From NCBI RefSeq assembly GCF_000020025.1, contig NC_010632.1:60001-92000 (forward strand): a DNA stretch of 32,000 nt, in the 5' to 3' direction. Below the pieces are notes generated by a model that saw only the letters and a program-made list of their open reading frames with translations, was not told where the DNA came from and did not search any database. Within the stretch, counting starts at the first letter, position 1, and every line of letters begins with the position of its first letter. A program made the translations under genes and the position numbers. Below are positions 8,747-30,933 of this stretch, piece after piece. This DNA comes from Nostoc punctiforme PCC 73102. GTDB taxonomy: Bacteria; Cyanobacteriota; Cyanobacteriia; Cyanobacteriales; Nostocaceae.

Positions 8747-11700
8747 TTACCCCGTCTCAATTGGCAACCTGACATTAAGATCCAAACGAAAAGTACCATA
8801 GGGATTAACGTGACCCCAAATTAAAGGCGAAAGCGCCCGCAAATCCTCCAACTTCATCAACTTCATCCATTGTGGTTGGGACAAAACCTCCTGAATCATC
8901 AACGTATTTATATATACCAAAGATATCTGGAGTAAATGCAGAGATAACACAGCTAATTCTTGGTCAGACAAACGATTAGTAGCAATCTCCCCACCCTTGC
9001 CGTAAAAAATAAAACTGTTAGCACTATTCCAGTTCTCCACCACGTTGAGTCCAGCATTTATCTCTTGTCGCAGTTCAACCGAATGCAGGTATTTACATAA
9101 AAATATAGTTTTTACAGCCTTGCCCAATTCCGCCAAGGCTTGATAAGTAGGGTGTAATAAATTACCCCTAGTAAAACGCTTTAAGATGGCTTCAGTTTCT
9201 GCCATACCCAAACGCAAAGCAGTAGCATACTTCACCATTTGGTCGTATTGTTGGCGAATTAAATCCCAATTAATAGCGCGAGTTAAAATAGGTTGCAAGT
9301 TTGGATAAGCATCATTATTTCCAGTTGAAGGACGGTATAATTTCTGAACATTGATACGTTTAAGACGCGGCATTAACTGAAAACCCAGTAAATGACAGAA
9401 AGCAAAAGCCACTTCATTTTGACCGTGACTATCCACATAATTTGTCTCCACTTTCATCTCAGTACAGTGGCGTAATAATCCTTCAATCATGGCTGCCACT
9501 TCAGAAGAAGAACAAGTTTTTAACTGTGAATAAATACAAACAGAATTCTTCTCAACGTGCCAATAAATCATCACACCTCTTCCACCATAACGGATGTGCC
9601 ACTCAGTCATTAAGTTTTGATCCCAAGCACCAAACTTTTTCGAGTCAGAAGCACAGGCGGTTGTACCCTCTCCCCAAATAGTAGAAATTCTGGCAGTAAA
9701 AATTGCATTTGCAATACAGGCAATAGCATTACGTAATTGTTCTTTCTGAATAAAATGACGCTTAACATGGAGTAAATCTTGATAATTGTCGCCTTTAATC
9801 TCATCACTTAAACGCTTTAATCCAGTATTCGTTCCTAAACCATATAAACAAAGTAGCAAGCGTTTTTGTAAAGTATATTCGCCTAAAACCTCTCGTGTTG
9901 ATACACTCTGAAAGTGTTGGCTAAACTTAACTCGCAAATCAGTCTCTTTCAGAATATCTAAGAGGCTAGTCATGCGCCAACGCCTAGTAATTTCAGTTTT
10001 CAACCTAGTCAAATTAGTCGGTTCATTTTGAGGATTCAGAGGAGAAACACAAATTCGACTTTTGCCTGTCGTTTTAAGTGTGACTAAACTATTTTTAGGT
10101 ATTCCTTTATCCAGTAAAGTTAATGATTGCTCCAAAGATTGCTGTAAATTAGCAATAAAGACTTCTACATCGGATGGTTGTTTCAAAGCTTGGAAATATT
10201 CTAATCTTTGCGCCTCAAAATCAGCAGGTAAATCTTCTTCAGGGTTTCTGTAACGATTAGCTCCTACAACCCATATTTCCTTGCATCTCAGCTTTTCTCT
10301 CAATGCTTGCAGCACGCTCAACTCATAATTAATGCGATTAACTTTGATTTCATCGTCTGCTCCCGTCTCTAATATAATTTCTTGCCAACCACTACGTAAT
10401 ACCCCCTCAATGGGTATATCTTCTCCAGCATCATAATAACGCTGTTTACTATCAGCATACTTTTTTAGTAAAGATATCGCTTGAATAACTGGACGATGAA
10501 CTTCATTATTTGAACGAAATTCGAGCTTGTTTAAAATTAACGGTAAAATTCGCCGATAATATCCACCATAAGAAGAGCGCATCACCGTATAAACTTTCTC
10601 ACGGTAAGCATTCCCTGTAGATTTATACTCTTTCACTAAATTCTTGAGAGTCACTTCACTTACTACAGGAAAAATCACATCCTTGACTGTGCCATCAGGT
10701 GTTTTCAAGGAAGCTTCTGCCATTTGGTATAGTAGATTATTCTTCCCATGAACCCGTTTAAAATCCTGAATAAGCTCTTTATCTACACGTTTTTCCTGCA
10801 TTCACACCTATGCGATGGACAATCTGAATGAGTAACTCTACTAAATTATCTATAACTTCTTGACTTCTGAGCCAACAAAAAGCTGTAAATAGTGTGTAGC
10901 GAATATGTTCTGGGTGACGGCGTAAGTCACGAGGATGTTCAACAATTACCCGACTTTTATAGACTTGGAGAACTTTGGTAGAGATGTTTTTAAATAAGTC
11001 TGTTGGTAATTCTAATTGCTCAAAAATCTCTAATTTAGCAACTTCCTTTTGAAAACTTTCTACACCAATTCTCCCTGGGTCTGTTTTTAATTCAGCCCAT
11101 GTTAATCTAGTCACTTCAGTGTTTATTTCTGAGTTATTCGTGTCATCTAACTGTTGAGATAATTGGATATCTCCTGGATTATTCAGTTGTTTATCATGAT
11201 TTGTTTGTGTGGTATCATCTAATTCCTGATCGGAAGCTTTCTCTTTCAAAAAATCATTTATCCACTTTTTAGATTGGTTAGATAGTTGGGAAGTTATGTC
11301 CCGAAAAAATTTAGATTCAAAATTTCTGATAGCAGAGCGAATGATACGTTCTAATCTGGAATCTGTCGGTGGTTCAAGTTTTAAATTCCGTAGTCTCGCT
11401 ACTGCTGCAAGTTTTAGCTGTTCAAATTTTAACTCATAAATTAGTGCTTGTTCTGCTAACCAATTAGTTAACTCAAAAGCATCACTAACTTTGGTTTCTT
11501 GAAATCCAAAGAATTCTCTAATTTGAGCGCGATGATATTTTATGGAGCGTCCTTGCCAATCGTAGTAAGAGTACTTTTGGGGGGAAATATCTAAAAGTTT
11601 GGCAACATAATCAACAACATTTTGGGAGATTTCTTGATTATTCTCAGGAAATCTGGCATAAATCTCAAAAAACTTGAGCAATATAGCAAAACCTAACCGA

Positions 11701-11792
11701 TTTTCGTCGTTTTTCTGATTCAGTAGTGCTAATTCAAGAGGGAGTAGCGTCCAATACTCTACTAATTCTTCTGGCTGCCAGGTTTTTTTCAT
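8747..11792 (-). pseudogene. tnpA: Tn3-family transposase TnpA, split by a 1-nt frameshift
   Basis: ORF 10779..11792 (337 aa, DUF4158-like N-terminus) ends ...[15 protein letters not shown] 8747..10801 (684 aa) starts ...[18 protein letters not shown]. Together they give the length and order of a Tn3 TnpA. The frames overlap at an A5 run (plus-strand T5 at 10790-10794); with A4 the frame would read VNAGKRVDKEL continuously. Confidence 0.85.
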
Positions 11793-11913: not shown

Positions 11914-12828
11914 CTAAAGGTCAGCTTTTTGGTCGGAATTAATCAGTATATTCAAGGCATGACGTGCAGCTGATTCTGATTTCTGTGAGGTGACTTTAGC
12001 GTAACGTAAAGTTGTTTGAATGCTTTCATGTCCCATTAATGAGCATAATTCCTCAATACTGATTAACCCCACTCGTTCTGTAGCAAATGTATGTCGTAAA
12101 TCGTGAATGCGAACTCCTTGAAGGTGTGGATACTTATTGGTTGTCTCCCGCCAATAATCATGCAATGTATGGTAGCTGATTCTACTTACTTTTCGGGTAA
12201 CTGGATGTTGTGCTGTAAACAAGGCATTCGTATTTTGATGCCGTGAGTATTTCAAGTATTTAGCAAGCATTGAGGCTGCGTCATCACTGTAAAAACACCA
12301 GCGTTGTTTGTTGCCTTTACCTAATACTTGAAATTTCTGGTTCTTGATATCTACAGAATCTATGTTTAGGGCTAAAAGCTCTCCTATTCTGCATCCTGTG
12401 CGATGCAGTAAATGAACTATCGTACTTAGACGTAAGTCATCTTTTACGGCAGAATATAGTATATTTAGTTGTGATTGTGTTAGATATCTTATTGTCTCGT
12501 CGCTTTTATGTTCGCCTTTCTCTCTTTCAGGTAGACGTTGTTTTAGTCCCCGGATAGGGTTGGATTTTATATACCCTTGTTCTACTGCAAAGTTAAGCAA
12601 ACTTTGTAATATTGCTTGATGCTTGTGGTGTGTTGTGTATTTTAAATGACTGAGATTATTTAGATACTCAACTAATGTTTGCTTACTGATAATTTCTATT
12701 GACCAACTTCCATACTTTTGCAGTAAAAGTCCGAGGGTCAGTTCATAGGTTTCTCTAGTACTTGGTGCTAGACCAGGACGCTCTAGAAATTCGGTCGTGA
12801 CAGTGGCTAAAGTTACAGCCGATTTCAC
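11914..12828 (-). CDS. tyrosine site-specific recombinase (probable transposon resolvase, TnpI-like role)
   Basis: 304 aa with the R..H-x-x-R..Y set: HRTGCRIGELLAL, IHDLRHTFAT, GHESIQTTLRYAKV. It lies directly upstream of, and co-oriented with, tnpA inside the element. Confidence 0.85.
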   Translation of the reverse strand: MKSAVTLATVTTEFLERPGLAPSTRETYELTLGLLLQKYGSWSIEIISKQTLVEYLNNLSHLKYTTHHKHQAILQSLLNFAVEQGYIKSNPIRGLKQRLPEREKGEHKSDETIRYLTQSQLNILYSAVKDDLRLSTIVHLLHRTGCRIGELLALNIDSVDIKNQKFQVLGKGNKQRWCFYSDDAASMLAKYLKYSRHQNTNALFTAQHPVTRKVSRISYHTLHDYWRETTNKYPHLQGVRIHDLRHTFATERVGLISIEELCSLMGHESIQTTLRYAKVTSQKSESAARHALNILINSDQKADL

Positions 12829-12905: not shown

Positions 12906-13373
12906 ATGGATACTTTTAAAACTCCCAATAGCGATGAATCCCTTGCTAGTTACGTGTCACGGGTCAGGAAGAAACTCAATTTAACTCAGTCTGAGTTGGC
13001 GGATGCTGCTGGTATACATGGACGCTCTGTCGGGAAAATCGAGCGAGGACTTACGCTTAAAATTAATCGTAGGACACTTCAAGGGTTAGCGATCGCACTT
13101 GGCGTACCTCAAGAATATTTTGATGCTGTGATCAAGGGTGAGGAAGTATCTCAGGTTAGAGGGGTTAAGTTTTGTCCCCAATGTTGGAATCCTGGCGCGG
13201 CGGTTGACCCTATGTGGAGTCATATCAAAGCCAAGTTTTGTTATCTCTGCGGTACACCGATTCGAGCTAACTGTGCGAATTGCGGTGAGTTGGTGTTGTC
13301 TTTGAGACACCGATTTTGTCCAATTTGTGGCTGTGCTTATAAAACGCCTGTCAAAACCGCTAAAATCCAATAA
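12906..13373 (+). CDS. XRE-type HTH protein with a C-terminal double zinc-ribbon
   Basis: 155 aa. HTH: LNLTQSELADAAGIHGRSVGKIERG. Then four CxxC pairs: CPQC, CYLC, CANC, CPIC. Divergent from the recombinase and inside the transposon. Confidence 0.75.
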   Translation: MDTFKTPNSDESLASYVSRVRKKLNLTQSELADAAGIHGRSVGKIERGLTLKINRRTLQGLAIALGVPQEYFDAVIKGEEVSQVRGVKFCPQCWNPGAAVDPMWSHIKAKFCYLCGTPIRANCANCGELVLSLRHRFCPICGCAYKTPVKTAKIQ

Positions 13374-16427: not shown

Positions 16428-18356
16428 TTAATTTTCGGCATTTCTACATACTCGAATTTGTGGAATCAGAACAAACCAATTGTCCGAAATTTCTCCTGTT
16501 ATATCATCTCTCTTAGTATGATGATATAGATATCGGACTGTTACTTCACCAAGCTGGAACTGAAACTGTCCAGGGAAAATACCTTTATGCTTAAGAAGCT
16601 GTGTTCCTCTCTTTGATAGACAACCAATTTCATCATTATTGGGTGTGAAAATCCTCCAAGCATTATTATGGTTATTTGCTCTTAACTCAAGAACATCACC
16701 CTCACATAAGTTTTTAATAATATTTTGTCTATTTTTAGTACTTTCATATCCCAAATAAACATTAGCTGGAGCTAAATCAAAGTAACGCATTAACTGAGGA
16801 AGTTGAGTTTCACTATAACCAATAACCTCTGAAGTTAAACAAGCTTGCTGTACAAATAAATTCTGCTGAGTAGAACAAACAATTAATTCTTCTTTGGCGC
16901 GAGTCATAGCAACATAAAAGAGTCGTCGTTCTGATTCGATCTCATTACAATTAGTTTTAAATCCATCACCTAAAAGTATGACTTTACGGAACTCCAGACC
17001 TTTTGAACCATGACAGCTAGTCACTAAAACTGAGTTATCTTCTAAGAAGGATTCACCATTTTCATTAAACTCAAATATAGCAGTCAATATTTCATCAACA
17101 CTAATAGGTAGTACAATATCTTCAGATCCATAGCCTCGTTCTTTATCTAAATCTCTAGCAATATTTATTAAGATTTTAACAGTAGGTTCTGTTAAGATAC
17201 GAGCAGTACGTTCAAAAAACGCCTCAAATCTTTTCTAAACTAATTCTTCAGGATTTAAAACTAGACTATAGTCTTTCTGTAAAGCATTAATTAGTAGACG
17301 AGTACAACGGTTTTTTAGTAGTGGGATAGTATTATTTTTCAGTGCATAAGTAGATATACTTTCTTTTTCTAAAAGCAAGCGGATAGGACTCAAATCATCC
17401 CAACGACTAGCTAAAATAGCGATTTCATGAGGAGCAATCCCTACGTTGACCCAAGATTGAATTTTGTCTTTAATCCATCCTGCTTGTTGTGATAAATTAT
17501 TGAACTTCAAAGCGGAGACTGCCTCTCCTCTTAATTCTTGGCGTTCGGAGTTAATACGAACTTGCTCTTCTGGAGCCTGTTTACAGCGTATTAAGTTATT
17601 TTGTATAAGACAATTAGCAGTTTCAATAATATTTTCTGTAGAGCGGTAATTTTCGTTAAGTAATAATCGTTTTGCTTTATATTCTTCTTGGAATTGAAGG
17701 ATATATCTAGTATCAGCACCTTTAAACGTAAAAACATTTTGATCATCATCTCCAATAACACAGAGATTAATTTGTACTGACTGTGTTTTATCCTCAGATT
17801 GATTTAAGCCAGAAATTGACTTAATTAAACGATATTCTTTCTCAGTGACATCTTGGTATTCATCAACAAAGATATATTCTAATTTTCCTAATAATTGAAT
17901 TCGCCGTGCCTGAGTATCTTCATCTACATCTTCAAATTCTTCGCCTTTTTCAATTAATTCGCAAGCTTCAACCAAAAGCCGATCAAAATTTATTGTCTGA
18001 GTTCCTCTGTATTCACCTACCGTCCGTCCCAAAAGTGATAAGGCTAAACCGTGGAAAGTAAAGACCCGAATTCGTGATGCTTGTTCGCCAATCAAATTAC
18101 GCAACCGCAACCGTAATTCTCTAACTGCATTACGGTTGTAAGCTAAAACAAGAATACGCTTCGGCTCAACTCGCTTAACCTTTACAAGATAAGCAATCCG
18201 GTGAACAATAGTTCTTGTTTTACCAGAACCAGGGCCTGCTATCACTGCCATTGTTGGGTCTGAAGCTAAAACAATTTGTTTTTGAGCAGGGTTAAGCGGT
18301 TCTAGAATACGGTTATAGTCTTCTGGAAGAATCGGTCTGGTAATCTCTTGTGCCAA
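16428..18356 (-). pseudogene. UvrD/Rep-type superfamily 1 helicase with a non-helicase C-terminal tail, interrupted by one in-frame TAG
   Basis: Motifs in order: AGPGSGKTRT, IFVDEYQD, VIGDDDQNVFTFKGA, NYRSTENI, then after the stop SCHGSKGLEFRKVILL and FYVAMTRAKEEL. ORFs 17235..18356 and 16428..17087 share a frame. The only stop in 643 codons is TAG at 17235-17237, and the 49 codons between the two ORFs are open. Confidence 0.85.
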
Positions 18357-18380
18357 AAATTGGTACTTTGAAACGAATTC

Positions 18381-21300
18381 TTATTGATTTGTGCCAAAGT
18401 AATCACGAACAAATTGCTGACGCTGTTCATCTGACTTTAACTGACCATACTTCACCATGTAATGAGTGCGACGAGTTTGTTCATCATAGTGAGCTTCAAC
18501 TTCAGGGTAACGGCGTTTTACTCTGGAAACACTTGCGTTTTTTATTACACGGACTTTCAGCGACTGTTGAAAAAGATTAAGCCCATCACTTAATCGAATG
18601 ATTTTTCTCTGGTGGAGCCACAAAAGAATAACTTCTAACTCTTCATTATCCCAATCAAGTTGAGTTTTTTGAGTAACTTCTTTTGAGAGTTTTCCTAATT
18701 CGTACTTGAGAGGCAACCTTGCCCCAGTTTTATCTTCTAAAGCTTGGTATAAAACTTCTAATACAGTTGTCGTTAAAGTTTTATGCCCAGGTAAGTATTC
18801 TGCAACTTTTATATCTTGTAATCGAACCACGTCACGAGCAATACGCTTTAACTTGACCCATTTTTGAGTAGCCCATCCTTCTAAAATATCTAGAATACTG
18901 GATGCTTTAATTTTTTTACTGTTATCTGGGTCAAGTCGTGAAGCAAGCCCACGCAGATTTATCTGTATTTCATTTTCATCACCAAACAACTTACTAAGTT
19001 CTTTGAGCAATTGGTCTTCTAACTGGCGAATGCGTTGATGGTTATTGCGGGCATCTCCTTTTACACCCTTAGTAATTACAAGTGTGATTGGTATTTCAAA
19101 AGAACATATTTCAGCCCTTTGCAATTCTCGAATTCTAGCAGTCAGGTCATGTAAACTAATGCCAGCTTCATCGCTGAGACGATCTAGGGGAAACGGTTCA
19201 TCATTGCTACTACAATAAGCTTTAGCAACGTGCATTGCCTGAATCAGCCGCTCAAAGTTATCCGCCTCAAACCGAGATAAACTCTTAATCTGGTTATATT
19301 TCTCAAACTGCTCCATAGACTCTGCAAAAGTATTATGGCTCAATTCAAATTGGATAAAGCTGGAAAAGTTCTCGGCTCTTTCTAATAAACCGAAGTTTTC
19401 TAAGTAATGCAAACCTACTTTTATTTTAGTGTTTTGCTGTTCTGAATCTTCCCCAAACTCTTCATCAAAGTCGCCCTCTTGAAAGATTTCATTAGTTGTA
19501 ACCCAAAACCAATCATCTCTGGCACTCCCAAAAGTGCGATCGCGAATATGTCTGGTTGAGATCAAGACATTTTTCAAATCTTGTTCGCTCAATTGGTTCA
19601 AGCTTTGCAAACGAAAAACTGTATCAGCATCTTTTGGGTCAAAGAGTAAAGTACAAACTGCTGGCTCTCCATCACGCCCTGCCCGTCCAGCTTCTTGAAC
19701 ATAACCTTCTAAATTGGCACTCATAGAATGATGAATAACTGCTCGTACATCCTTGCGGTTAATGCCCATACCAAATGCACAAGTTGCAGTAACTACGTTC
19801 AATTTACCTGATTTGAATTCTTGCAAAACTTCCTGTTTCTTTTCTTTGGCAAGTTTCCCATGATAGTATTTAGCTTTAATATGAATTTGGTTGAGAAGTT
19901 CTGCCAGTTTTTCGGCATTCTTGCGTGTAGTAGTATAAACTAGCGTGCTACCCCCTAGCTTAACAGCTTCTTTAACTTGCTCCAGTAAGACTTGCTCTTT
20001 ATTGCCTGCTACTGGAATGACCTGAAAAGTCAGATTTTCTCTGGTTGTTGCCCCATCAATTGTACGATTAATATTTAACTTATATTGAGCAAATAGCTTT
20101 TTAATATCTTCAACAACTTTAACTGTTGCTGTTGCTGTCATCAAAGCTAACAAAGGCATTGCAAGCTGCCGTTCTTGATATAATTCCCGAACAAATTTCG
20201 GTATGTAGCGATAATCTGGTCGAAAATCGTGACCCCATTGGCTGACACAGTGAGCCTCATCAATTACCCAAAGGACGGGAGGACGCTGTTCTAGCAATGC
20301 CCGAATACTCATTGACCGCAGTTGCTCAGGACTGATATACAACAAACCTTTGGAACCAAAACGCAGTTCTTCGAGCCGTTGGCGGCGTTCTGCTGCCGAA
20401 AGATTACCATTAATAAAAGTGGAAAAGAAAAACCCAGCTTGCTCTAAATCTGCTACCTGATCCGCCATTAATGCTTGTAGCGGTGAAATTACAACAGTCA
20501 GCGCTTTGTGCCTTTCGTGGAACATGAAAGCTGGTAATTGATAGCATAAAGATTTACCACCGCCAGTAGGCATGAGAACAAGCGGACGCTCATTATTAAT
20601 AATTGCTTGTACAGCTTCTTCTTGTAAAGAGCGAAAATTAGGGATACCGAAATATTCTAAATAGGAGTTAACCGCAAATTCATCTGTATTTAAAGGGCGT
20701 AAACTCTCAAGTACTGTTTGAAATTCATTTAAATGTTTGAGCCAGTTAGAGAAAGCCTGCTTTGATTCATTGGCATTGCAGTCATAGTTCCAAGCTAGTA
20801 ATCCCGCTACGCATAATCTTGTATCGAAATCATAAGTTTGTGGACTAGACCATATTTGCTGCAAATAGGATTTATTCATCCCTTTCAGCATTGTCTCTGG
20901 CAACATTTCTATAGCAGGTTGTTCAATTTTCCAGTTAAGAATCTCACTGAAAAACTGTTGATATGCACAATCTGCATCTTCGCTACCACAAGTAAGTAGC
21001 CAAGTATATACCTGTTGTACTTCATTAGGCTTTTTAGCTATTGCTTCTAATTGTTGACGGAGCAGTAATCGAGTTGCCTGAGCATCTTCTACAGGATTAT
21101 TACTTGAATACTCACTTTGTTTATAGTCTTTATTTAGTTTGTGTGACTCCTGTAAAGGAAAAGCTAGTATTGACAGTTCTAAAGTATCGATTATGTACCA
21201 AGAAGAGAGTTCCGGCTCTTGCTCAATCAAATAAGGGTAATCAAAGCGGCGGAAGTTATGACCGCATACTGCTACTTTATTATTCTTCAGCTTTCTAATT

Positions 21301-21482
21301 TCTTCGTAAGCTTGGTTTAAAGATTCTTCCAAAAAATCCTTTGTTAAATTAGGGGATACTAATCCTATACGAAATATCTGATTTTCATTGTTAACTTCTA
21401 AATCTAAATAAGTATAAAATAATTCAATAATAGATAAGTCTTCCATATAACCCTTAATAGAATTGCCCAACCGCAATTTCAT
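18381..21482 (-). CDS. RecQ-family helicase with an N-terminal DEDD-type exonuclease-like domain and a long uncharacterised C-terminal region
   Basis: 1033 aa. Exo-like motifs: LDLEV, CGHNFRRFDYPYL, VEDAQATRLL. RecQ core: LMPTGGGKSLCYQLP, VIDEAHCVSQWGHDFRPDY, MTATAT, AFGMGINRKDVRAVIHH, QEAGRAGRDG. The stop lies 24 nt upstream of the UvrD-like start. Confidence 0.85.
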   Translation of the reverse strand: MKLRLGNSIKGYMEDLSIIELFYTYLDLEVNNENQIFRIGLVSPNLTKDFLEESLNQAYEEIRKLKNNKVAVCGHNFRRFDYPYLIEQEPELSSWYIIDTLELSILAFPLQESHKLNKDYKQSEYSSNNPVEDAQATRLLLRQQLEAIAKKPNEVQQVYTWLLTCGSEDADCAYQQFFSEILNWKIEQPAIEMLPETMLKGMNKSYLQQIWSSPQTYDFDTRLCVAGLLAWNYDCNANESKQAFSNWLKHLNEFQTVLESLRPLNTDEFAVNSYLEYFGIPNFRSLQEEAVQAIINNERPLVLMPTGGGKSLCYQLPAFMFHERHKALTVVISPLQALMADQVADLEQAGFFFSTFINGNLSAAERRQRLEELRFGSKGLLYISPEQLRSMSIRALLEQRPPVLWVIDEAHCVSQWGHDFRPDYRYIPKFVRELYQERQLAMPLLALMTATATVKVVEDIKKLFAQYKLNINRTIDGATTRENLTFQVIPVAGNKEQVLLEQVKEAVKLGGSTLVYTTTRKNAEKLAELLNQIHIKAKYYHGKLAKEKKQEVLQEFKSGKLNVVTATCAFGMGINRKDVRAVIHHSMSANLEGYVQEAGRAGRDGEPAVCTLLFDPKDADTVFRLQSLNQLSEQDLKNVLISTRHIRDRTFGSARDDWFWVTTNEIFQEGDFDEEFGEDSEQQNTKIKVGLHYLENFGLLERAENFSSFIQFELSHNTFAESMEQFEKYNQIKSLSRFEADNFERLIQAMHVAKAYCSSNDEPFPLDRLSDEAGISLHDLTARIRELQRAEICSFEIPITLVITKGVKGDARNNHQRIRQLEDQLLKELSKLFGDENEIQINLRGLASRLDPDNSKKIKASSILDILEGWATQKWVKLKRIARDVVRLQDIKVAEYLPGHKTLTTTVLEVLYQALEDKTGARLPLKYELGKLSKEVTQKTQLDWDNEELEVILLWLHQRKIIRLSDGLNLFQQSLKVRVIKNASVSRVKRRYPEVEAHYDEQTRRTHYMVKYGQLKSDEQRQQFVRDYFGTNQ

Positions 21483-21773: not shown

Positions 21774-21882
21774 CAGCAATTCTCATCATGAGAATGATTA
21801 TAACTATCATTAGCATCTATGCAAAATTTTCAGTTAAAGGTATGGTTTTTGTATCTCAATACTCGCGAACGCAGGAGCTTTT

Positions 21883-23190
21883 TTGAATCAGCCAGGAATT
21901 TTTGACGAAATAGTACAATACTTTCAGTCAATCCTGAAAGATTTACCTGATAAGCGAACAGGCAAAAACAAACGCTATCAAATGAGTGATGCAGCATTAA
22001 GCGCATTCTCCATATTTTTTACTCAGAGTCCTTCTTTTCTTGCCCATCAAAGGTCAATGGCACATAGTAAGGGACATAATAATGCTCAAAGCTTGTTTGG
22101 GGTACACCAAATTCCAAGCGATAACCATATCCGAGATTTACTTGATGAGATAGAACCAACCGTTGTGTTTCCGGTGTTTACCAAGATTTTCAAAGCATTA
22201 GAGAATGGTAAACACTTATCAAAATTTCGTTCTTTTAAAAATAATTTGCTGATAGCTCTAGATGGAACAGAATATTTTTGCTCCAATGAAATTCACTGTG
22301 AACACTGTTCGAGCAGAACTTTTAAAAACGGAACAACTCAGTATTTTCATACTGTGGTGACACCAGTAATTGTTTGTCCTAGTAATTCTCAAGTAATCCC
22401 GTTAATACCAGAGTTTGTTGTCCCTCAAGACGGATATCAAAAGCAGGATTGTGAGAATGCGGCAGCAAAACGTTGGATTCAGAAATATGCCAAACAGTAC
22501 GCATCTCTTGGTATTACCATTTTAGGAGATGATCTTTATTGCCATCAACCTTTATGTGAATTATTACTACAAGAAAAACTAAATTTCATTCTAGTGTGTC
22601 GGTCTAAATCCCATAAAACACTTTATGAATGGTTAGAAGGAATGCCCCTTGATACATTTAGTGTCAAACATTGGAAGGGCAAAGTCTATGAGATTTATAC
22701 CTACCGTTATGTCAACCAAATTCCTTTACGGAATAGCGAGGATGCTTTATTAGTAAACTGGTGTGAATTGGCCATTACTCGCTCTGATGGGACTATAATC
22801 TACAAAAATACCTTTGCGACAAATCATCGAATCACAGATATTAATGTTGAGGCGATTGTGTCAGATGGTCGCAGCAGATGGAAAATAGAAAACGAAAATA
22901 ATAACACTCTTAAAACCAAAGGTTACAACTTAGAACATAATTTCGGACATGGGAAAACGCATTTATCCTCCCTATTAGCAACCTTTAATATCCTTGCATT
23001 TCTGTTTCATACTCTACTTGACATTATAGATGAGAAATACCAATTTATCCGCCAGCATTTACCAACACGCAAGACCTTCTTTGATGATTTACGCGCCTTA
23101 ACTCGTTATCTTTATTTTGATAGTTGGGAAAGTCTGCTTAACTTTATGATCCACGGACTGGAATTAGAATTTCATCCCAACACAAGCTGA
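21883..23190 (+). CDS. DDE transposase (IS4/ISNCY-like)
   Basis: 435 aa. LIALDGTEYF, ILGDDLYCHQP and GRSRWKIENENNNTLK fit a D-D-E triad with the R..E..K signature. Non-ATG (TTG) start; there is no in-frame ATG upstream of the N-terminal region that I recall as conserved in homologues. Confidence 0.8.
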   Translation: MNQPGIFDEIVQYFQSILKDLPDKRTGKNKRYQMSDAALSAFSIFFTQSPSFLAHQRSMAHSKGHNNAQSLFGVHQIPSDNHIRDLLDEIEPTVVFPVFTKIFKALENGKHLSKFRSFKNNLLIALDGTEYFCSNEIHCEHCSSRTFKNGTTQYFHTVVTPVIVCPSNSQVIPLIPEFVVPQDGYQKQDCENAAAKRWIQKYAKQYASLGITILGDDLYCHQPLCELLLQEKLNFILVCRSKSHKTLYEWLEGMPLDTFSVKHWKGKVYEIYTYRYVNQIPLRNSEDALLVNWCELAITRSDGTIIYKNTFATNHRITDINVEAIVSDGRSRWKIENENNNTLKTKGYNLEHNFGHGKTHLSSLLATFNILAFLFHTLLDIIDEKYQFIRQHLPTRKTFFDDLRALTRYLYFDSWESLLNFMIHGLELEFHPNTS

Positions 23191-23228
23191 AAATTCATCT
23201 TACTTTTTGAGAATACTTACAACTCCGT

Positions 23229-23265
23229 GTAATACATGGAATTAGCTTGAATTGCCATGTATTAC
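23229..23265. repeat. 11-bp perfect stem-loop inside the IS, downstream of the transposase
   Basis: GTAATACATGG (23229-23239) pairs with CCATGTATTAC (23255-23265) across a 15-nt loop. Confidence 0.8.
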
Positions 23266-23414
23266 TTGGTAGTTCATTGTGTCTAAAAATCTGTTTGAAG
23301 TAGCCACTCCTAGTTCAAATTTATCATTCAGCAGAATTCTCAACGTCTCCCAGGCTTCATCGGTTAGTTTCGCTCTTAACATATTGATAACCATTCTCAT
23401 AATGAGAATTGCTG

Positions 23415-23691: not shown

Positions 23692-26532
23692 ATGGCGCAA
23701 ACTGTGAACCATTCACCCGGTTCCATAGTCACCTGTCGCAGTCGGCAATGGGTGATACTACCTTCAGAAAATCAAGATGTTATTCGTCTACGACCGCTTT
23801 CAGGCAATGAAGATGAAATTGCTGGTATCTACCAAAAGCTTTTAGAAGAAGAGCTAGAGAAGATTGAATCAGCTACATTTCCTCTACCTCAAGCTACTAG
23901 CGTACAAGACCATGCAGCCGCACTTTTGCTCATGGATGCTGCACGTCTTCTACTCCGTAGCGGGGCGGGGCCTTTTCGCTGTTTAGGACGATTGTCACTG
24001 CGTCCCCGTCCTTACCAGTTAGTTCCTTTGTTGATGGCACTGAAGCTAGAGACGGTAAAACTGCTTGTAGCTGATGACGTGGGTATTGGTAAGACCATCG
24101 AAGCTGGATTAATAGCTCGTGAATTGCTAGACCGAGGTGAAGTTAAGCGAATTGCAGTACTGTGTCCACCACACTTATGCGATCAATGGCAGCAGGAATT
24201 ACGTGAAAAGTTTCATATTGATGCCGTGGTTGTGCGTTCTGGCACTGCTTCTAAGTTAGAGCGGAATATACCAAATAATGACAGTGTTTTTAGTTATTAT
24301 CGCCACCTGATTGTGAGCTTAGACTATGCCAAAGCAGAACGTCGTCGCGCCAGCTTTATAACTCACTGTCCTGACTTAGTAATTGTGGATGAAGCACATA
24401 CTTGCGCTCGTCCAAATAAAACTACTACATCCCAGCAGCAGCGACACCAGCTGATTACAGAAATTGCTCAAAAACAAGAACAACATTTACTGTTACTTAC
24501 AGCTACTCCTCACAGTGGGATTGAAGAATCTTTTCTCTCACTTTTAGGTTTGCTGAAGCCGGAGTTTGAGCATTTCAATCTCAATAGCTTAACTGACAAA
24601 CAACGTGACCACTTAGCCAATCATTTCGTTCAGCGCAGACGAGCAGATGTCAAGCTTTGGCTAGGGAATGAAACTCCTTTTCCTGAACGAGAGTCAAGCG
24701 AGGAATCATATAAGTTATCAAAAGAGTACAAAGAACTATTTGATGAAGTCTATGATTTTGCCCGTGGTCTAGTGAAAACGACTACGGCTGATATGAGTCA
24801 TGCTCAACGTCGGGGAAGATACTGGTCGGCTTTGGCTTTGATTCGTTGTGTCATGTCTTCACCTGCGGCTGCGATCGCTACATTAAATCGCCAAGTTAGT
24901 AAATCAGGTGGCTCATTGACTGATTTGGATGAAGACTTGATGAGTTCTTATGTCCACGATCCTACAGAACAGGAACAAGCCGTTGACGCATCGCCAACTG
25001 TAGTAATAGAGCAGGGGCAGCAAAGTTATAAAGACGCAGATAAACGTAAGTTAAAAGCTTTTGTGCAATCAGCAGAGAAGTTACAAGGTGGCAAAGACCA
25101 AAAACTGCAATCGTGCATCGCTACAGTAGAATCTTTGCTCAAAGACGAGATGAACCCTATTGTCTGGTGTCGCTATATTGCTACTGCAAATTATGTAGCT
25201 GATGCTCTCAGGCAAAAGTTACAGAAGAAAGGTAGCCAAATTCGGGTAATTGCCATTACTGGAGAACTTTCAGAGGATGAGCGTGAAATTCGCCTAGAAG
25301 AGTTAAAATCTTATCCCCAACGAGTGCTAGTTGCTACAGATTGTTTAAGTGAAGGGGTAAACCTGCAAACGCACTTCAGTGCAGTAATTCACTATGATTT
25401 ACCCTGGAATCCTAATCGGTTAGAACAACGCGAAGGACGTATCGACCGCTACGGACAAACAGCAACTAAGGTAAAAGCCTGCTTGCTTTATGGTCGAGAT
25501 AATCCTGTTGATGGTGCAGTTCTCGATGTTCTGATTCGCAAAGCTGTGCAGATTCACAAGTCTTTAGGGATTACAGTTCCCGTACCAATGGAAAGCACTA
25601 CTGTAGCAGAAGCAGTATTTAAATCACTGTTTGAAAGGACTACAGAAGTTATCCAGTTATCACTGTTTGATTTTCAGGAAGAATCTGCGGTTGATAAAGT
25701 ACATAAGAATTGGGACAACGCAGTAGAACGCGAAAAAACTAATCGTACCCGTTTTGCTCAACGTGCCATTAAGCCAGAGCAAGTAGAACAAGAACTCATC
25801 GACTCTGACCAGATTTTAGGGAATGAACAGGATGTAGAGCGATTTGTCATCTCTGCTTGCGATCGCATTTCTTGTTATTTGATCAAGAAAAAGCAGGGAT
25901 GGTTATTACCGCAGCCACCAGATTTCCTCAAGTCAACGTTAGGCGATAAGTCTCGTTTACTTACATTTACTACCCCAGCACCAGAAGGTGTGGAATATGT
26001 AGGGCGAAATCACCCTTTAGTAGAAGGTTTAGCGCAATACATTTTAGAAGATGCACTTTCTCTGGCGGTTGAACCAATCGCAGCAAGATGTGGGTTCACT
26101 ACGACTAATGCTGTTCAAAAGCGCACGACTTTGCTGTTAGTACGGTTACGGCATTTGCTAGACAGTTCTAGGCGTACTACAGAGACAAAAAATACTACAT
26201 TACTAGCAGAAGAATGTGCAGTTATCGGGTTTACTGGTTCACCTTCTAGCCCTAATTGGTTGCCGCAGTTAGAAGCAACTAGAGTATTACAAGAAGCAAA
26301 GCCAGTCAGCGATGCTGGTAAAGCTATCAAGCAGGGAGAAATTGCTGAATTACTTCCCAGACTAGAAGAACTACAGCCAGATTTAGAAAAGTTTGCAGGC
26401 CAAAGAGCAGAAGAATTATTACAAAGCCATAAGCGGGTGAGGGACATCACCAAAGAAGGTCGAATCCGCGTTACTCCGCAATTGCCGATGGATGTTCTCG
26501 GTGTTTTTATTCTCCAACCCGGACGCAAGTAA
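23692..26532 (+). CDS. drmD: SNF2-family helicase, DISARM class 1 DrmD-like
   Basis: 946 aa: LRPRPYQL, ADDVGIGKTIEAG, VIVDEAHTCA, LLTATP, ATDCLSEGVNLQ, DLPWNPNRLEQREGRIDRYGQ. Immediately followed by the large MTase and a DELH helicase. Confidence 0.8.
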   Translation: MAQTVNHSPGSIVTCRSRQWVILPSENQDVIRLRPLSGNEDEIAGIYQKLLEEELEKIESATFPLPQATSVQDHAAALLLMDAARLLLRSGAGPFRCLGRLSLRPRPYQLVPLLMALKLETVKLLVADDVGIGKTIEAGLIARELLDRGEVKRIAVLCPPHLCDQWQQELREKFHIDAVVVRSGTASKLERNIPNNDSVFSYYRHLIVSLDYAKAERRRASFITHCPDLVIVDEAHTCARPNKTTTSQQQRHQLITEIAQKQEQHLLLLTATPHSGIEESFLSLLGLLKPEFEHFNLNSLTDKQRDHLANHFVQRRRADVKLWLGNETPFPERESSEESYKLSKEYKELFDEVYDFARGLVKTTTADMSHAQRRGRYWSALALIRCVMSSPAAAIATLNRQVSKSGGSLTDLDEDLMSSYVHDPTEQEQAVDASPTVVIEQGQQSYKDADKRKLKAFVQSAEKLQGGKDQKLQSCIATVESLLKDEMNPIVWCRYIATANYVADALRQKLQKKGSQIRVIAITGELSEDEREIRLEELKSYPQRVLVATDCLSEGVNLQTHFSAVIHYDLPWNPNRLEQREGRIDRYGQTATKVKACLLYGRDNPVDGAVLDVLIRKAVQIHKSLGITVPVPMESTTVAEAVFKSLFERTTEVIQLSLFDFQEESAVDKVHKNWDNAVEREKTNRTRFAQRAIKPEQVEQELIDSDQILGNEQDVERFVISACDRISCYLIKKKQGWLLPQPPDFLKSTLGDKSRLLTFTTPAPEGVEYVGRNHPLVEGLAQYILEDALSLAVEPIAARCGFTTTNAVQKRTTLLLVRLRHLLDSSRRTTETKNTTLLAEECAVIGFTGSPSSPNWLPQLEATRVLQEAKPVSDAGKAIKQGEIAELLPRLEELQPDLEKFAGQRAEELLQSHKRVRDITKEGRIRVTPQLPMDVLGVFILQPGRK

Positions 26533-30432: not shown

Positions 30433-30483
30433 GCTAAAATATTATGTTTATTTGCTCACTTGATTAAATTTCAACTTTTTTCT

Positions 30484-30933
30484 ATGTTTAACAACAACGA
30501 TCTTATAGAGAAAAATAAAGAACTCAAAGAACAAATAAAAAATTCTAGAGATGCTTATCAAGCTAGATTCATCCGCAATCAGTACACAAATAATCTCATC
30601 ATAGCTTTATCACTTATATTAAAAGTTCTAATTGCCGTAACTGGTACTAGCCCAGCTTTTAAAGATGCTAAAAACCCTTGGGCTGCTCCACTTGGAGTTT
30701 CAGCCTCAGCTTGGTTAGGGCTAATATCAACTGCACTTGTAAGTATTCAAAGACTTTACAACATTCAAGAAAAAATTGCTTTCTATCCTGCTTATATAGT
30801 TAAAGCTGAAGAACTACTTGAAGATTTTAATGCTATTACAAACCAAGAAGAACTAGAGTCTGTACGCAAGCAATTTAGACAAATGCGTGCAGATGAGGCA
30901 CTCAAGCGACCTATAGAACGTTCAAATATTTAA
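30484..30933 (+). CDS. small two-transmembrane-helix protein (SLATT-like topology)
   Basis: 149 aa from the first ATG; the track start 30460 is a TTG. Two hydrophobic spans, LIIALSLILKVLIAVTG and AAPLGVSASAWLGLISTALVSI, are flanked by charged helical segments. The stop lies 13 nt before the drmA-like ATG. Confidence 0.55.
   Translation: MFNNNDLIEKNKELKEQIKNSRDAYQARFIRNQYTNNLIIALSLILKVLIAVTGTSPAFKDAKNPWAAPLGVSASAWLGLISTALVSIQRLYNIQEKIAFYPAYIVKAEELLEDFNAITNQEELESVRKQFRQMRADEALKRPIERSNI

Follow-up and report, generated by a model that had tools for sequence, protein, structure and literature searches.

A probable pseudogene of a fused RecQ-UvrD helicase family in Nostoc punctiforme PCC 73102

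We have analysed a minus-strand helicase locus of Nostoc punctiforme PCC 73102, which is very probably a single fused gene that has been turned into a pseudogene. The window, by which we mean the whole stretch of DNA under analysis, comprises 32,000 nucleotides (nt) of contig NC_010632.1 (assembly GCF_000020025.1, positions 60,001 to 92,000), and coordinates below are counted from its first letter. The original prediction, made from the sequence of the window, had described this locus as an operon of two helicase genes, an exonuclease-RecQ fusion and a UvrD-like helicase, standing back-to-back with a DISARM locus and forming a candidate defence module. The domains that it read are present, whereas the two genes are not.

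Reading frame and domains of the helicase gene

The minus-strand open reading frames (ORFs) listed for the window at this locus are 18381-21482 (1033 amino acids, aa), 17235-18356 (373 aa) and 16428-17087 (219 aa), and the coordinates given in the original prediction are right. Translation of 16428-18356 in one frame yields 643 codons with a single internal stop. The gap of 24 nt between this segment and the 1033-codon ORF equals eight whole codons, and both therefore lie in the same frame. The locus can thus be read as one frame of 1685 codons, in which the only stops besides the terminal one are codons 1034 and 1416. Its features, with residues numbered from the listed 1033-codon ORF, are as follows.

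16428..21482, minus strand: fused exonuclease-like/RecQ/winged-helix/UvrD/C-terminal-domain helicase pseudogene, 5055 nt or 1685 codons in a single frame
21444..21446, minus strand: probable true start codon, M13 of the listed ORF, where close homologues begin MEDL or MQDL
20988..21446, minus strand: DEDD (DnaQ-like) exonuclease-like domain, aa 13-165, from a DinG N-terminal profile, a Protein Data Bank (PDB) profile and motifs
20673..20987, minus strand: linker region, aa 166-270, conserved within the family, with no Pfam or PADLOC match
19563..20672, minus strand: RecQ-type superfamily 2 (SF2) helicase core, aa 271-640, Pfam DEAD and Helicase_C, with PTGGGKS, DEAH and QEAGRAGRDG intact
18384..19562, minus strand: winged-helix-type array of helices alternating with short strands, aa 641-1033, from AlphaFold2 and weak Foldseek matches
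18381-18383, minus strand: first nonsense codon, TAA, codon 1034, in the inter-helicase linker; GAA (Glu) in 17/17 alignable relatives at the DNA level
16818..18320, minus strand: UvrD/Rep-type superfamily 1A (SF1A) helicase core, aa ~1055-1555, with GPGSGKT, DEYQD, GDDDQ and YVAMTRAK intact
17235-17237, minus strand: second nonsense codon, TAG, codon 1416, within the UvrD core; CAG (Gln) in 10/15 relatives and other sense codons in the remaining 5/15
16431..16817, minus strand: C-terminal beta-rich domain, aa 1556-1684, from an AlphaFold2 model (pLDDT 89) and Foldseek

The 24 nt that had been taken for an intergenic spacer encode eight in-frame codons of a conserved linker, and the relatives read straight through them as part of one polypeptide. 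Where the window has TNQ, the stop and then EFVSKYQFLAQEITRPI, the relative P0007 has TNQEEFVSKYQFLTQEITRPI. The TTG at 18356, at which a second gene would have to start, is a Leu codon of this linker and simply the next in-frame TTG. Around codon 1416, relative P0011 reads NPEELVQKRFEAFF and the window reads NPEELV-stop-KRFEAFF. The two changes are GAA to TAA (G-to-T) and CAG to TAG (C-to-T). All catalytic motifs of the window copy are intact apart from the two stops, and for this reason the inactivation is a recent one. Judging from where close homologues begin, the gene probably starts at 21446; consistent with this placement, a 100% identical Nostoc punctiforme protein (P0001), found in the search with the 1033-aa ORF, is annotated with 1021 aa. 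The gene is dead from codon 1034 onward at the least: neither the UvrD core nor the tail can be produced from the window copy, whose product is at most a truncated head-RecQ-winged-helix protein. The correction has practical consequences. Tests of a "two-helicase operon" by synteny or expression are unworkable, since there is one broken gene and no gene pair to compare across genomes, and repair of the TAG alone leaves the TAA in place.

The reading of the domains themselves (an exonuclease-like head, a RecQ core, a UvrD core and a non-helicase tail) was borne out throughout. In the head, the predicted exonuclease-like motifs are D27-x-E29, H74-N75-x3-F-D80 and N128-x4-D133-A-x-A-T. The acidic residues D27, E29, D80 and D133 are kept, which argues for metal binding, and Asn128 replaces the expected Exo III His. 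The Asn had been pointed out for this copy, and it holds for most of the family: D27, E29, H74-N75, D80, N128 and D133 are invariant or nearly so among 93 close homologues, N128 is found in the cyanobacterial members, and most of 64 distant relatives also have Asn at the His position, with the acidic residues kept in most members. The head matches the NCBIfam DinG profile PRK08074 (E 7.6e-10, aa 14-157) and also TIGR01407, the score for the DinG equivalog being 37 bits against a cut-off of 789 bits. Among PDB profiles it matches a DEDDh exonuclease (9mrd, E 0.002) and Staphylococcus aureus DinG (8zef, E 0.03), and in the PDB profile alignment the Exo III His of the target stands opposite the family Asn. 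No Pfam match to the head was obtained, even at E 10. A Tyr-Lys pair, Y120-K121, lies seven residues before Asn128 (aa 120-133 region, nt 21084-21125); it is invariant, and most distant relatives keep it. That this pair substitutes for the absent general-base His is speculation.

The RecQ core is complete, as originally stated, and belongs to the RecQ family by its score against TIGR00614 recQ_fam (309.6 bits, cut-off 219.8). It is not a canonical RecQ, for it scores 347.9 against a cut-off of 640.2 bits with TIGR01389 and 261.5 against 1015 bits with PRK11057. The stretch of about 400 residues that follows (about 420 in the original count, which likewise noted no RQC or HRDC signature) has no Pfam match, no RQC or HRDC domain and no Cys4 zinc cluster. 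AlphaFold2 modelled aa 625-1033 with a pLDDT of 86, and Foldseek matches to this model were weak and fell on multi-winged-helix proteins, among them RPC62, p45C and MarR-type regulators.

The second motor is a UvrD-type helicase with an internal TAG and a non-helicase end of about 130 residues, as had been predicted. Pfam matches to UvrD-helicase (147 bits), AAA_19, UvrD_C and UvrD_C_2 place it in SF1A. Its scores lie far under the NCBIfam equivalog cut-offs, which speaks against orthology with UvrD, PcrA, Rep and helicase IV alike; it is none of these. The tail forms an independent and confident fold (AlphaFold2 pLDDT 89). Its top Foldseek match in the PDB is 3k2y (probability 0.98, E 0.02, TM ~0.5), a structure that itself belongs to the HIRAN family, followed by the HIRAN domain of HLTF (4s0n, 4xzf and 5bnh; probability 0.5-0.8, TM 0.35-0.4). 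An NRYNNGW-like stretch in the cyanobacterial members is reminiscent of the HIRAN motif NxYDxNA. Distant relatives, too, have a tail that can be aligned with this domain. The PDB sequence profile of the tail returned chance matches to ribosomal protein L13 only (E about 1), and so gave no sequence-level support for HIRAN. Of the three family-specific pieces of the fused protein, N-terminal (258 aa), middle (409 aa) and C-terminal (140 aa), none matched a PADLOC v2.0.0 model, candidate systems (PDC/HEC) included, or, even at E 10, a Pfam family.

Relatives, spread and turnover of the fused family

Homologues were identified by searching the 1033-aa ORF against a collection of 5.8 billion proteins, and the best 120 were considered. 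The majority are 1,600-1,800 aa long and combine the DEAD/Helicase_C set of Pfam domains with the UvrD-helicase/UvrD_C set; shorter entries are mainly partial or broken. Cyanobacterial homologues (47-91% identity) come from Nostoc, Scytonema, Calothrix, Oscillatoria, Kamptonema, Leptolyngbya, Nodosilinea, Halothece and others, and homologues with about 30% identity or less from Proteobacteria, Bacteroidota, Campylobacterota, Deinococcota and Desulfobacterota. With few exceptions a homologue is a single protein of ~1,610-1,910 aa, in the order DEDD-type head, RecQ core, winged-helix array, UvrD core and ~130-aa tail. When the middle region (409 aa) alone was compared with 1.84 billion cluster representatives, only 137 clusters were matched. 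The full-length clusters among them are mostly ~1,610-1,910 aa in length and are matched at residues ~640-1,060; for one distant member the name points to a Desulfovibrionaceae metagenome-assembled genome (MAG). From the constancy of length and position in most of these proteins it follows that the fusion is old and has stayed stable at identities as low as 22%. Across 64 distant full-length relatives (58 without near-duplicates of two clusters), DxE, GHNxxxHD, N[DN]PxxD, both Walker A motifs, DEAH and DEYQD are kept, with occasional exceptions.

The family is frequently carried on plasmids. A tblastn search of 72,556 plasmids gave 19 records with at least 80% query cover, six of which are cyanobacterial, two of these six with an interrupted gene. 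Intact copies include those of Nostoc sp. C052 (CP040273.1, 241350-246353), Allochromatium vinosum pALVIN01 (WP_223295316.1) and Cereibacter azotoformans pORIO1. Non-cyanobacterial plasmid matches, at about 30% identity, were to Allochromatium, Thiothrix, Microvirga, Paracoccus, Cereibacter, Rhizobium, Sulfitobacter, Aliarcobacter, Bacteroides and Phocaeicola, with further long matches in Croceicoccus (79% cover) and Deinococcus (69-72% cover). Among the records inspected, those of Allochromatium, Thiothrix, Microvirga, Cereibacter, Rhizobium, Aliarcobacter and Bacteroides carry a single annotated coding sequence of 1,540-1,760 aa, named "RecQ family ATP-dependent DNA helicase"; for Paracoccus, Croceicoccus, Sulfitobacter, Phocaeicola and Deinococcus the tblastn covers are 69-93%. 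No match was found in a phage collection searched by tblastn with the middle region.

Turnover of the gene is considerable. Among 62 loci, taken from one genome per species, 35 hold an intact single ORF of more than 1,600 aa and the rest are broken or cut at contig ends. Breaks occur at varied positions in 13 of 48 complete loci, none of them at the junction at which the window copy is interrupted. In plasmid pNsp_a of Nostoc sp. ATCC 53789 (L075, 12001-18746), a 90.7% identical copy is split by an IS1634 transposase into halves annotated as "DEAD/DEAH box helicase" and "UvrD-helicase domain-containing protein", with a viperin gene ~4 kb downstream. The copy of Pseudanabaena sp. ABRG5-3 (PLSDB H6) is also interrupted by a transposase, and in Calothrix NIES-4105 the gene is present twice, once on a plasmid and once in the chromosome. 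The Nostoc-type copies of Nostocales are mosaic: their first ~1,250 residues are 80-99% identical, while the last ~430 aa (the end of the UvrD core and the tail) occur as divergent cassettes with 42-56% identity, as a comparison of P0002, P0007 and P0013 with P0009-P0012 shows. The window copy has the P0009-P0012 cassette, and this segment (16428-17732, beyond aa 1250) has the lowest G+C of the gene, 0.337. The pattern indicates recombinational swapping of C-terminal modules.

A natural two-gene form was sought among these relatives. The two RecQ-only-looking entries, P0089 and P0061, proved by tblastn to have a frameshift in one case and a deletion plus frameshifts in the other, and the frameshifted copy still encodes the linker upstream of the called UvrD start. 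L076 and L077, the loci that look split, are a frameshifted copy and a deleted copy. No bona fide split form was found among the 62 species-representative loci or the database proteins checked.

We conclude that the locus is very probably one fused gene, pseudogenised in this strain. The pseudogene part of this conclusion has its limits. A sequencing error at one of the two stops is conceivable when judged from the window alone; NCBI annotates a 1021-aa product that terminates at the same TAA; and some broken copies in draft genomes and MAGs may be assembly errors. It is distinctly unlikely that the 1021-aa head-RecQ-winged-helix remnant is still functional and that only the UvrD core and tail have been lost. 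The RecQ-half motifs are all intact, ~220 nt upstream are conserved with relatives, and the stop falls between domains, NCBI treating the product as a normal protein; however, none of the relatives is cleanly truncated at the same point, conservation of the whole architecture across phyla suggests that its parts cooperate, the second, independent nonsense codon downstream suggests lapsed selection, and an insertion sequence (IS) lies ~290 nt upstream. A functional operon of an exonuclease-RecQ gene and a UvrD-like partner, acting as a new defence module, is scarcely credible, for although two long same-strand ORFs lie 24 nt apart beside a DISARM-related system and UvrD-like partners occur in Gabija (whose GajB models match) and as ArmD in ARMADA II (PMC13463889), the gap is in-frame linker, the stop stands in place of the Glu codon of all 17 relatives, the TTG is a linker Leu, the downstream ORF has a nonsense codon of its own, apparent split forms are frameshifted or deleted, and relatives are fused across several phyla.

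The fused family is a rare one, known to databases only as "RecQ family helicase", and Pfam, PADLOC and the literature are without an entry for its family-specific parts. No described RecQ-UvrD fusion was found in the literature. RqlH, a RecQ-like protein with a ComF domain, has a different architecture (PMC3378886); a Desulfonema paper mentions only extra RecQ genes, a paper on polyvalent proteins does not cover the fused family, and a modularity-network preprint mentions neither RecQ nor UvrD. The family varies the theme of helicase-nuclease fusion, is conserved across phyla and is so far uncharacterised.

Genomic settings and possible roles

The window copy is flanked by a DJ-1/PfpI gene and an IS. 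Beyond the IS, on the opposite strand, lies a system related to ARMADA and DISARM, and the features on this side are as follows.

21774..23414, plus strand: complete insertion sequence (1641 bp), separate from the helicase gene, with a transposase ORF at 21883-23190, from inverted repeats and target duplication
23692-26532, plus strand: Snf2 helicase, PADLOC DpdE model 690 bits, DrmD model 333 bits
26557-30432, plus strand: PglX/DrmMI-like methyltransferase
30460-30933, plus strand: 157-aa ORF between the methyltransferase and the YprA-type helicase, with no Pfam or PADLOC match and a hydrophobic stretch, LIIALSLILKVLIAV
30947 (start), plus strand: YprA-type helicase fragment running past the window end, DruE models 144 bits, no DrmA model at E up to 1e-5

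The IS has 34-nt inverted repeats (21774-21807 and 23381-23414) that are 88% complementary, and a 9-bp direct duplication, GTCCAATAG, is found on both sides of it; its transposase has a weak DDE_Tnp_1_assoc match, under the Pfam cut-off. It lies in the spacer from which the helicase pseudogene and the Snf2 gene diverge; in Nostoc minutum NIES-26 this spacer measures only 677 nt. The back-to-back arrangement with a DISARM locus that the original prediction had described is not a direct one, for the IS lies in between. Nor is adjacency a property of the family: the divergent arrangement with Snf2 and methyltransferase genes recurs in only two of ~60 related loci (L010 and L017), those of the close relatives Nostoc minutum NIES-26 and N. 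punctiforme NIES-2108, in which the helicase gene is intact. The neighbouring system itself, which runs past the end of the window, may be a better fit to ARMADA type I than to classical DISARM; cyanobacterial ARMADA type I is reported to have the order Snf2-methyltransferase-YprA, and its YprA helicases group with Druantia (YprA/ARMADA preprint).

A difference in G+C content between two 60-nt samples had been offered as a sign of separate acquisition. The sampled values, 0.30 in the helicase gene and 0.45 in the drmD-like gene, are correct, but they are unrepresentative. G+C is 0.371 for the whole helicase gene, 0.438 for the drmD-like gene, 0.388 for the methyltransferase gene and 0.396 for the window, and it is heterogeneous within the helicase and neighbouring genes, so that separate acquisition is unsupported. 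The description of the neighbourhood as rich in mobile elements and defence genes was accurate. Further along the window, a Tn3-family transposase is contained in two overlapping minus-strand ORFs (8747-11792; the DUF4158 part at 10779-11792 and the DDE_Tnp_Tn3 part at 8747-10801), which suggests a frameshifted, decaying element, and beside it are a tyrosine integrase (11914-12828) and a helix-turn-helix and double-zinc-ribbon protein (12906-13373).

In order to find conserved partners of the family, all flanking ORFs from 71 loci were clustered. None of the neighbours occurs in more than about six of ~60 loci, and no conserved partner gene was found. The commonest neighbours are a YprA-type DEAD and DUF1998 helicase directly downstream (five species) and then GmrSD upstream (five species). 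The YprA-type helicase (DEAD, Helicase_C and DUF1998/MZB, 948-1907 aa) lies ~100 nt downstream on the same strand as the intact gene in L002 (15113-17956), L017, L020, L043 and L046. Settings with defence or toxin-antitoxin genes include type I restriction-modification and HNH genes on pALVIN01, viperin in Nostoc ATCC 53789, NERD and SNase genes in Nostoc C052, and UvrD plus PDDEXK, GmrSD and PycTM genes in Nostoc N6; elsewhere HipA, BrnT, RES, YprA-type helicases and DISARM/ARMADA-like genes are found. Settings suggestive of plasmid maintenance include parAB, rep and a DnaB-like gene on pACIB of Aliarcobacter, ssb and ParA/ParG genes in Bacteroides finegoldii, and topoisomerase and RNase HI genes in Microvirga, and a MipZ/ParA-like gene lies near the family copy on pALVIN01.

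RecQ and UvrD motors translocate 3'-to-5' on single-stranded DNA, DnaQ-type domains act on 3' ends, and HIRAN binds 3'-OH ends. Modules of all these kinds, RecQ, UvrD, DnaQ-like exonuclease and HIRAN, belong to the classical equipment of repair and replication. We propose loading at 3' ends because the intact enzyme combines 3'-to-5' motors with a head of 3'-5' exonuclease type and a HIRAN-like tail. It would load at free 3' ends or at fork or D-loop junctions, where its two motors, joined in one chain, would open or remodel duplex DNA and its head would hold or trim the 3' end. Should motors of like polarity indeed act together on one chain, the family would offer a simple model for coordinated remodelling of forks or ends.

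The role that we put first, tentatively and at slightly less than even odds, is that of an accessory factor which moves horizontally and serves in conflicts over DNA of foreign or plasmid origin, either in defence of the host or in the establishment or protection of the plasmid. Patchy spread, plasmid carriage, breakage, IS hits and cassette swapping fit genes of genetic conflict, without proving that role. For the intact family, a role in defence or in conflict with mobile elements is a plausible candidate; the window copy cannot fill it as a working system. In its most specific and rather doubtful form, the idea is that intact members are a single-polypeptide system against foreign DNA, in which the tail and the exonuclease-type head would pick out exposed 3' ends, or intermediates of replication, on incoming phage or plasmid DNA, and the two 3'-to-5' motors would strip or unwind that DNA. 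Cassette swapping would then reflect an arms race over target recognition, and the window would hold a dead copy beside an ARMADA/DISARM-type system in a defence island, on a Nostoc contig of plasmid size (254,918 bp). True action against phages or plasmids would add a single-gene system to those known.

Several observations weigh against the proposed mechanism and against a role in conflict. With Asn in place of the general-base His, the head may bind ends instead of cleaving them. The NxYNNGW motif of the cyanobacterial branch is absent from distant members, and no HIRAN (PF08797) match to the tail was found in Pfam at E 10 or with the PDB sequence profile, so that the predicted fold points only weakly to a HIRAN-like domain, as a lead and not a result. 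Families of defence or conflict were matched by few of the 100 ORFs scanned as nearest neighbours (GmrSD 3, caspase/CHAT 3, EAD1 5, helicases 3-5, PycTM 1), and as raw counts these do not establish enrichment near defence genes. The gene has the same housekeeping surroundings in Oscillatoria princeps and Kamptonema (purL-purF-[gene]-accC-yggT-psbX-ycf66), and other loci adjoin TIM and PNPase, recR and miaE (recR in Dolichospermum), or clpB. Plasmid copies beside par, rep, ssb, topoisomerase and RNase HI genes fit replicon maintenance equally well.

A housekeeping function is the next candidate, possible and yet on balance doubtful. Here the intact family would serve chromosomal genome maintenance, by replication-fork or recombination repair at forks, gaps and recombination intermediates; inheritance would be mostly vertical and proximity to plasmid and defence genes incidental. 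The Oscillatoriales synteny and the housekeeping neighbours elsewhere, including recR, agree with it, and with them a part of the family does lie among housekeeping genes, an outcome of the kind that the original prediction, with conserved core repair neighbourhoods in mind, had named as refuting a defence module. The component modules are of classical repair and replication types, and no phage match or PADLOC model speaks for another role. The family is, however, patchy and rare (62 species-representative loci; 137 clusters in 1.84 billion), and frequent plasmid carriage and breakage, duplicates on plasmid and chromosome and swaps of C-terminal cassettes are unusual in core repair genes. Some other kind of role is rather unlikely.

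A function for the carrier replicon, in replication, in establishment after transfer or in protection from host nucleases, is quite improbable. The plasmid settings described above for Aliarcobacter, Bacteroides finegoldii, pALVIN01 and Microvirga, with their partition, replication, ssb, topoisomerase and RNase HI genes, and the many plasmid copies would suit it, but many chromosomal copies lie far from replication or partition genes and most host plasmids are typed as non-mobilizable. The family occurs in at least six phyla, and a role in conflicts over foreign DNA, like its competitors, can be tested directly in tractable hosts with intact copies, such as Cereibacter, Rhizobium, Allochromatium, Paracoccus and Bacteroides.

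Comparison with known systems

No named defence system matches the gene, as had been predicted, and PADLOC recognises generic helicase cores only (DpdF, PsyrT and GajB). The best PADLOC models for the RecQ half are DpdF and PsyrT (368 and 303 bits), and these cover the core alone (aa 263-642). The gene does not qualify as a Dpd component, for it scores 232 against 550 bits with the DpdF equivalog NF041063 and no dpd gene is annotated nearby, though the best PADLOC model of the adjacent Snf2 helicase is labelled DpdE. No PsyrA partner was found among the annotated neighbours. GajB models are the best for the UvrD half (up to 153 bits) and again cover the SF1 core only; no GajA (OLD-type nuclease) is encoded among the window genes, and the locus is not a Gabija system.

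In ARMADA II a GajB-like helicase acts together with helicases of the Snf2 and YprA types and a methyltransferase (PMC13463889; bioRxiv 10.1101/2025.09.15.676423), and genes of these same kinds adjoin the window locus. DISARM-related arrays can depend on its UvrD-like helicase ArmD, whose N-terminus is RelE-like and whose place in the operon is fixed (PMC13463889). The fused family has no RelE-like N-terminus, and its gene is divergent and does not close an operon. No RecQ component is described in the ARMADA papers. Occurring beside such a system in two of ~60 loci only, divergently and, in the window, separated by an IS, the gene is not a component of DISARM class 1 or ARMADA.

As a whole, the protein can be likened to an exonuclease-helicase of WRN or DinG type to which a UvrD motor and a putative end-binding module resembling that of HLTF have been added. 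Among repair enzymes, an exonuclease followed by RecQ is the domain order of eukaryotic WRN, whose exonuclease is of DEDDy type. The family shares with WRN a 3'-5' exonuclease-type domain N-terminal to a RecQ core in one chain, followed by winged-helix elements. It differs in that its head is DnaQ/DinG-like with Asn, in that no zinc, RQC or HRDC signature was detected, and in the addition of a UvrD motor and a tail; there is no evidence of common descent of the two fusions. The closest sequence relative of the head is Gram-positive DinG (PRK08074, TIGR01407, 8zef), in which an exonuclease likewise precedes an SF2 helicase. The helicase of DinG, however, is XPD/Rad3-like, and DinG has neither a second motor nor such a tail.

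HLTF and Rad5 resemble the family in joining a motor protein to a small beta-rich domain, that of the family being nearest to HIRAN structures by its predicted fold. For fork reversal, the HIRAN domain of HLTF takes hold of the 3'-OH end on the nascent strand. The motor of HLTF is a double-strand translocase of Snf2 type, accompanied by a RING domain, whereas the motors of the family are RecQ and UvrD and its HIRAN assignment is weak. RecBCD, AddAB and AdnAB likewise unite two helicase motors with nuclease-type chemistry acting on DNA ends. Those enzymes are multisubunit, with SF1 motors and RecB-type nucleases, and the motors of RecBCD are of opposite polarity; the fused family, by contrast, carries on one chain two motors, one SF2 and one SF1, whose polarity is expected to be the same, together with a DEDD-type head.

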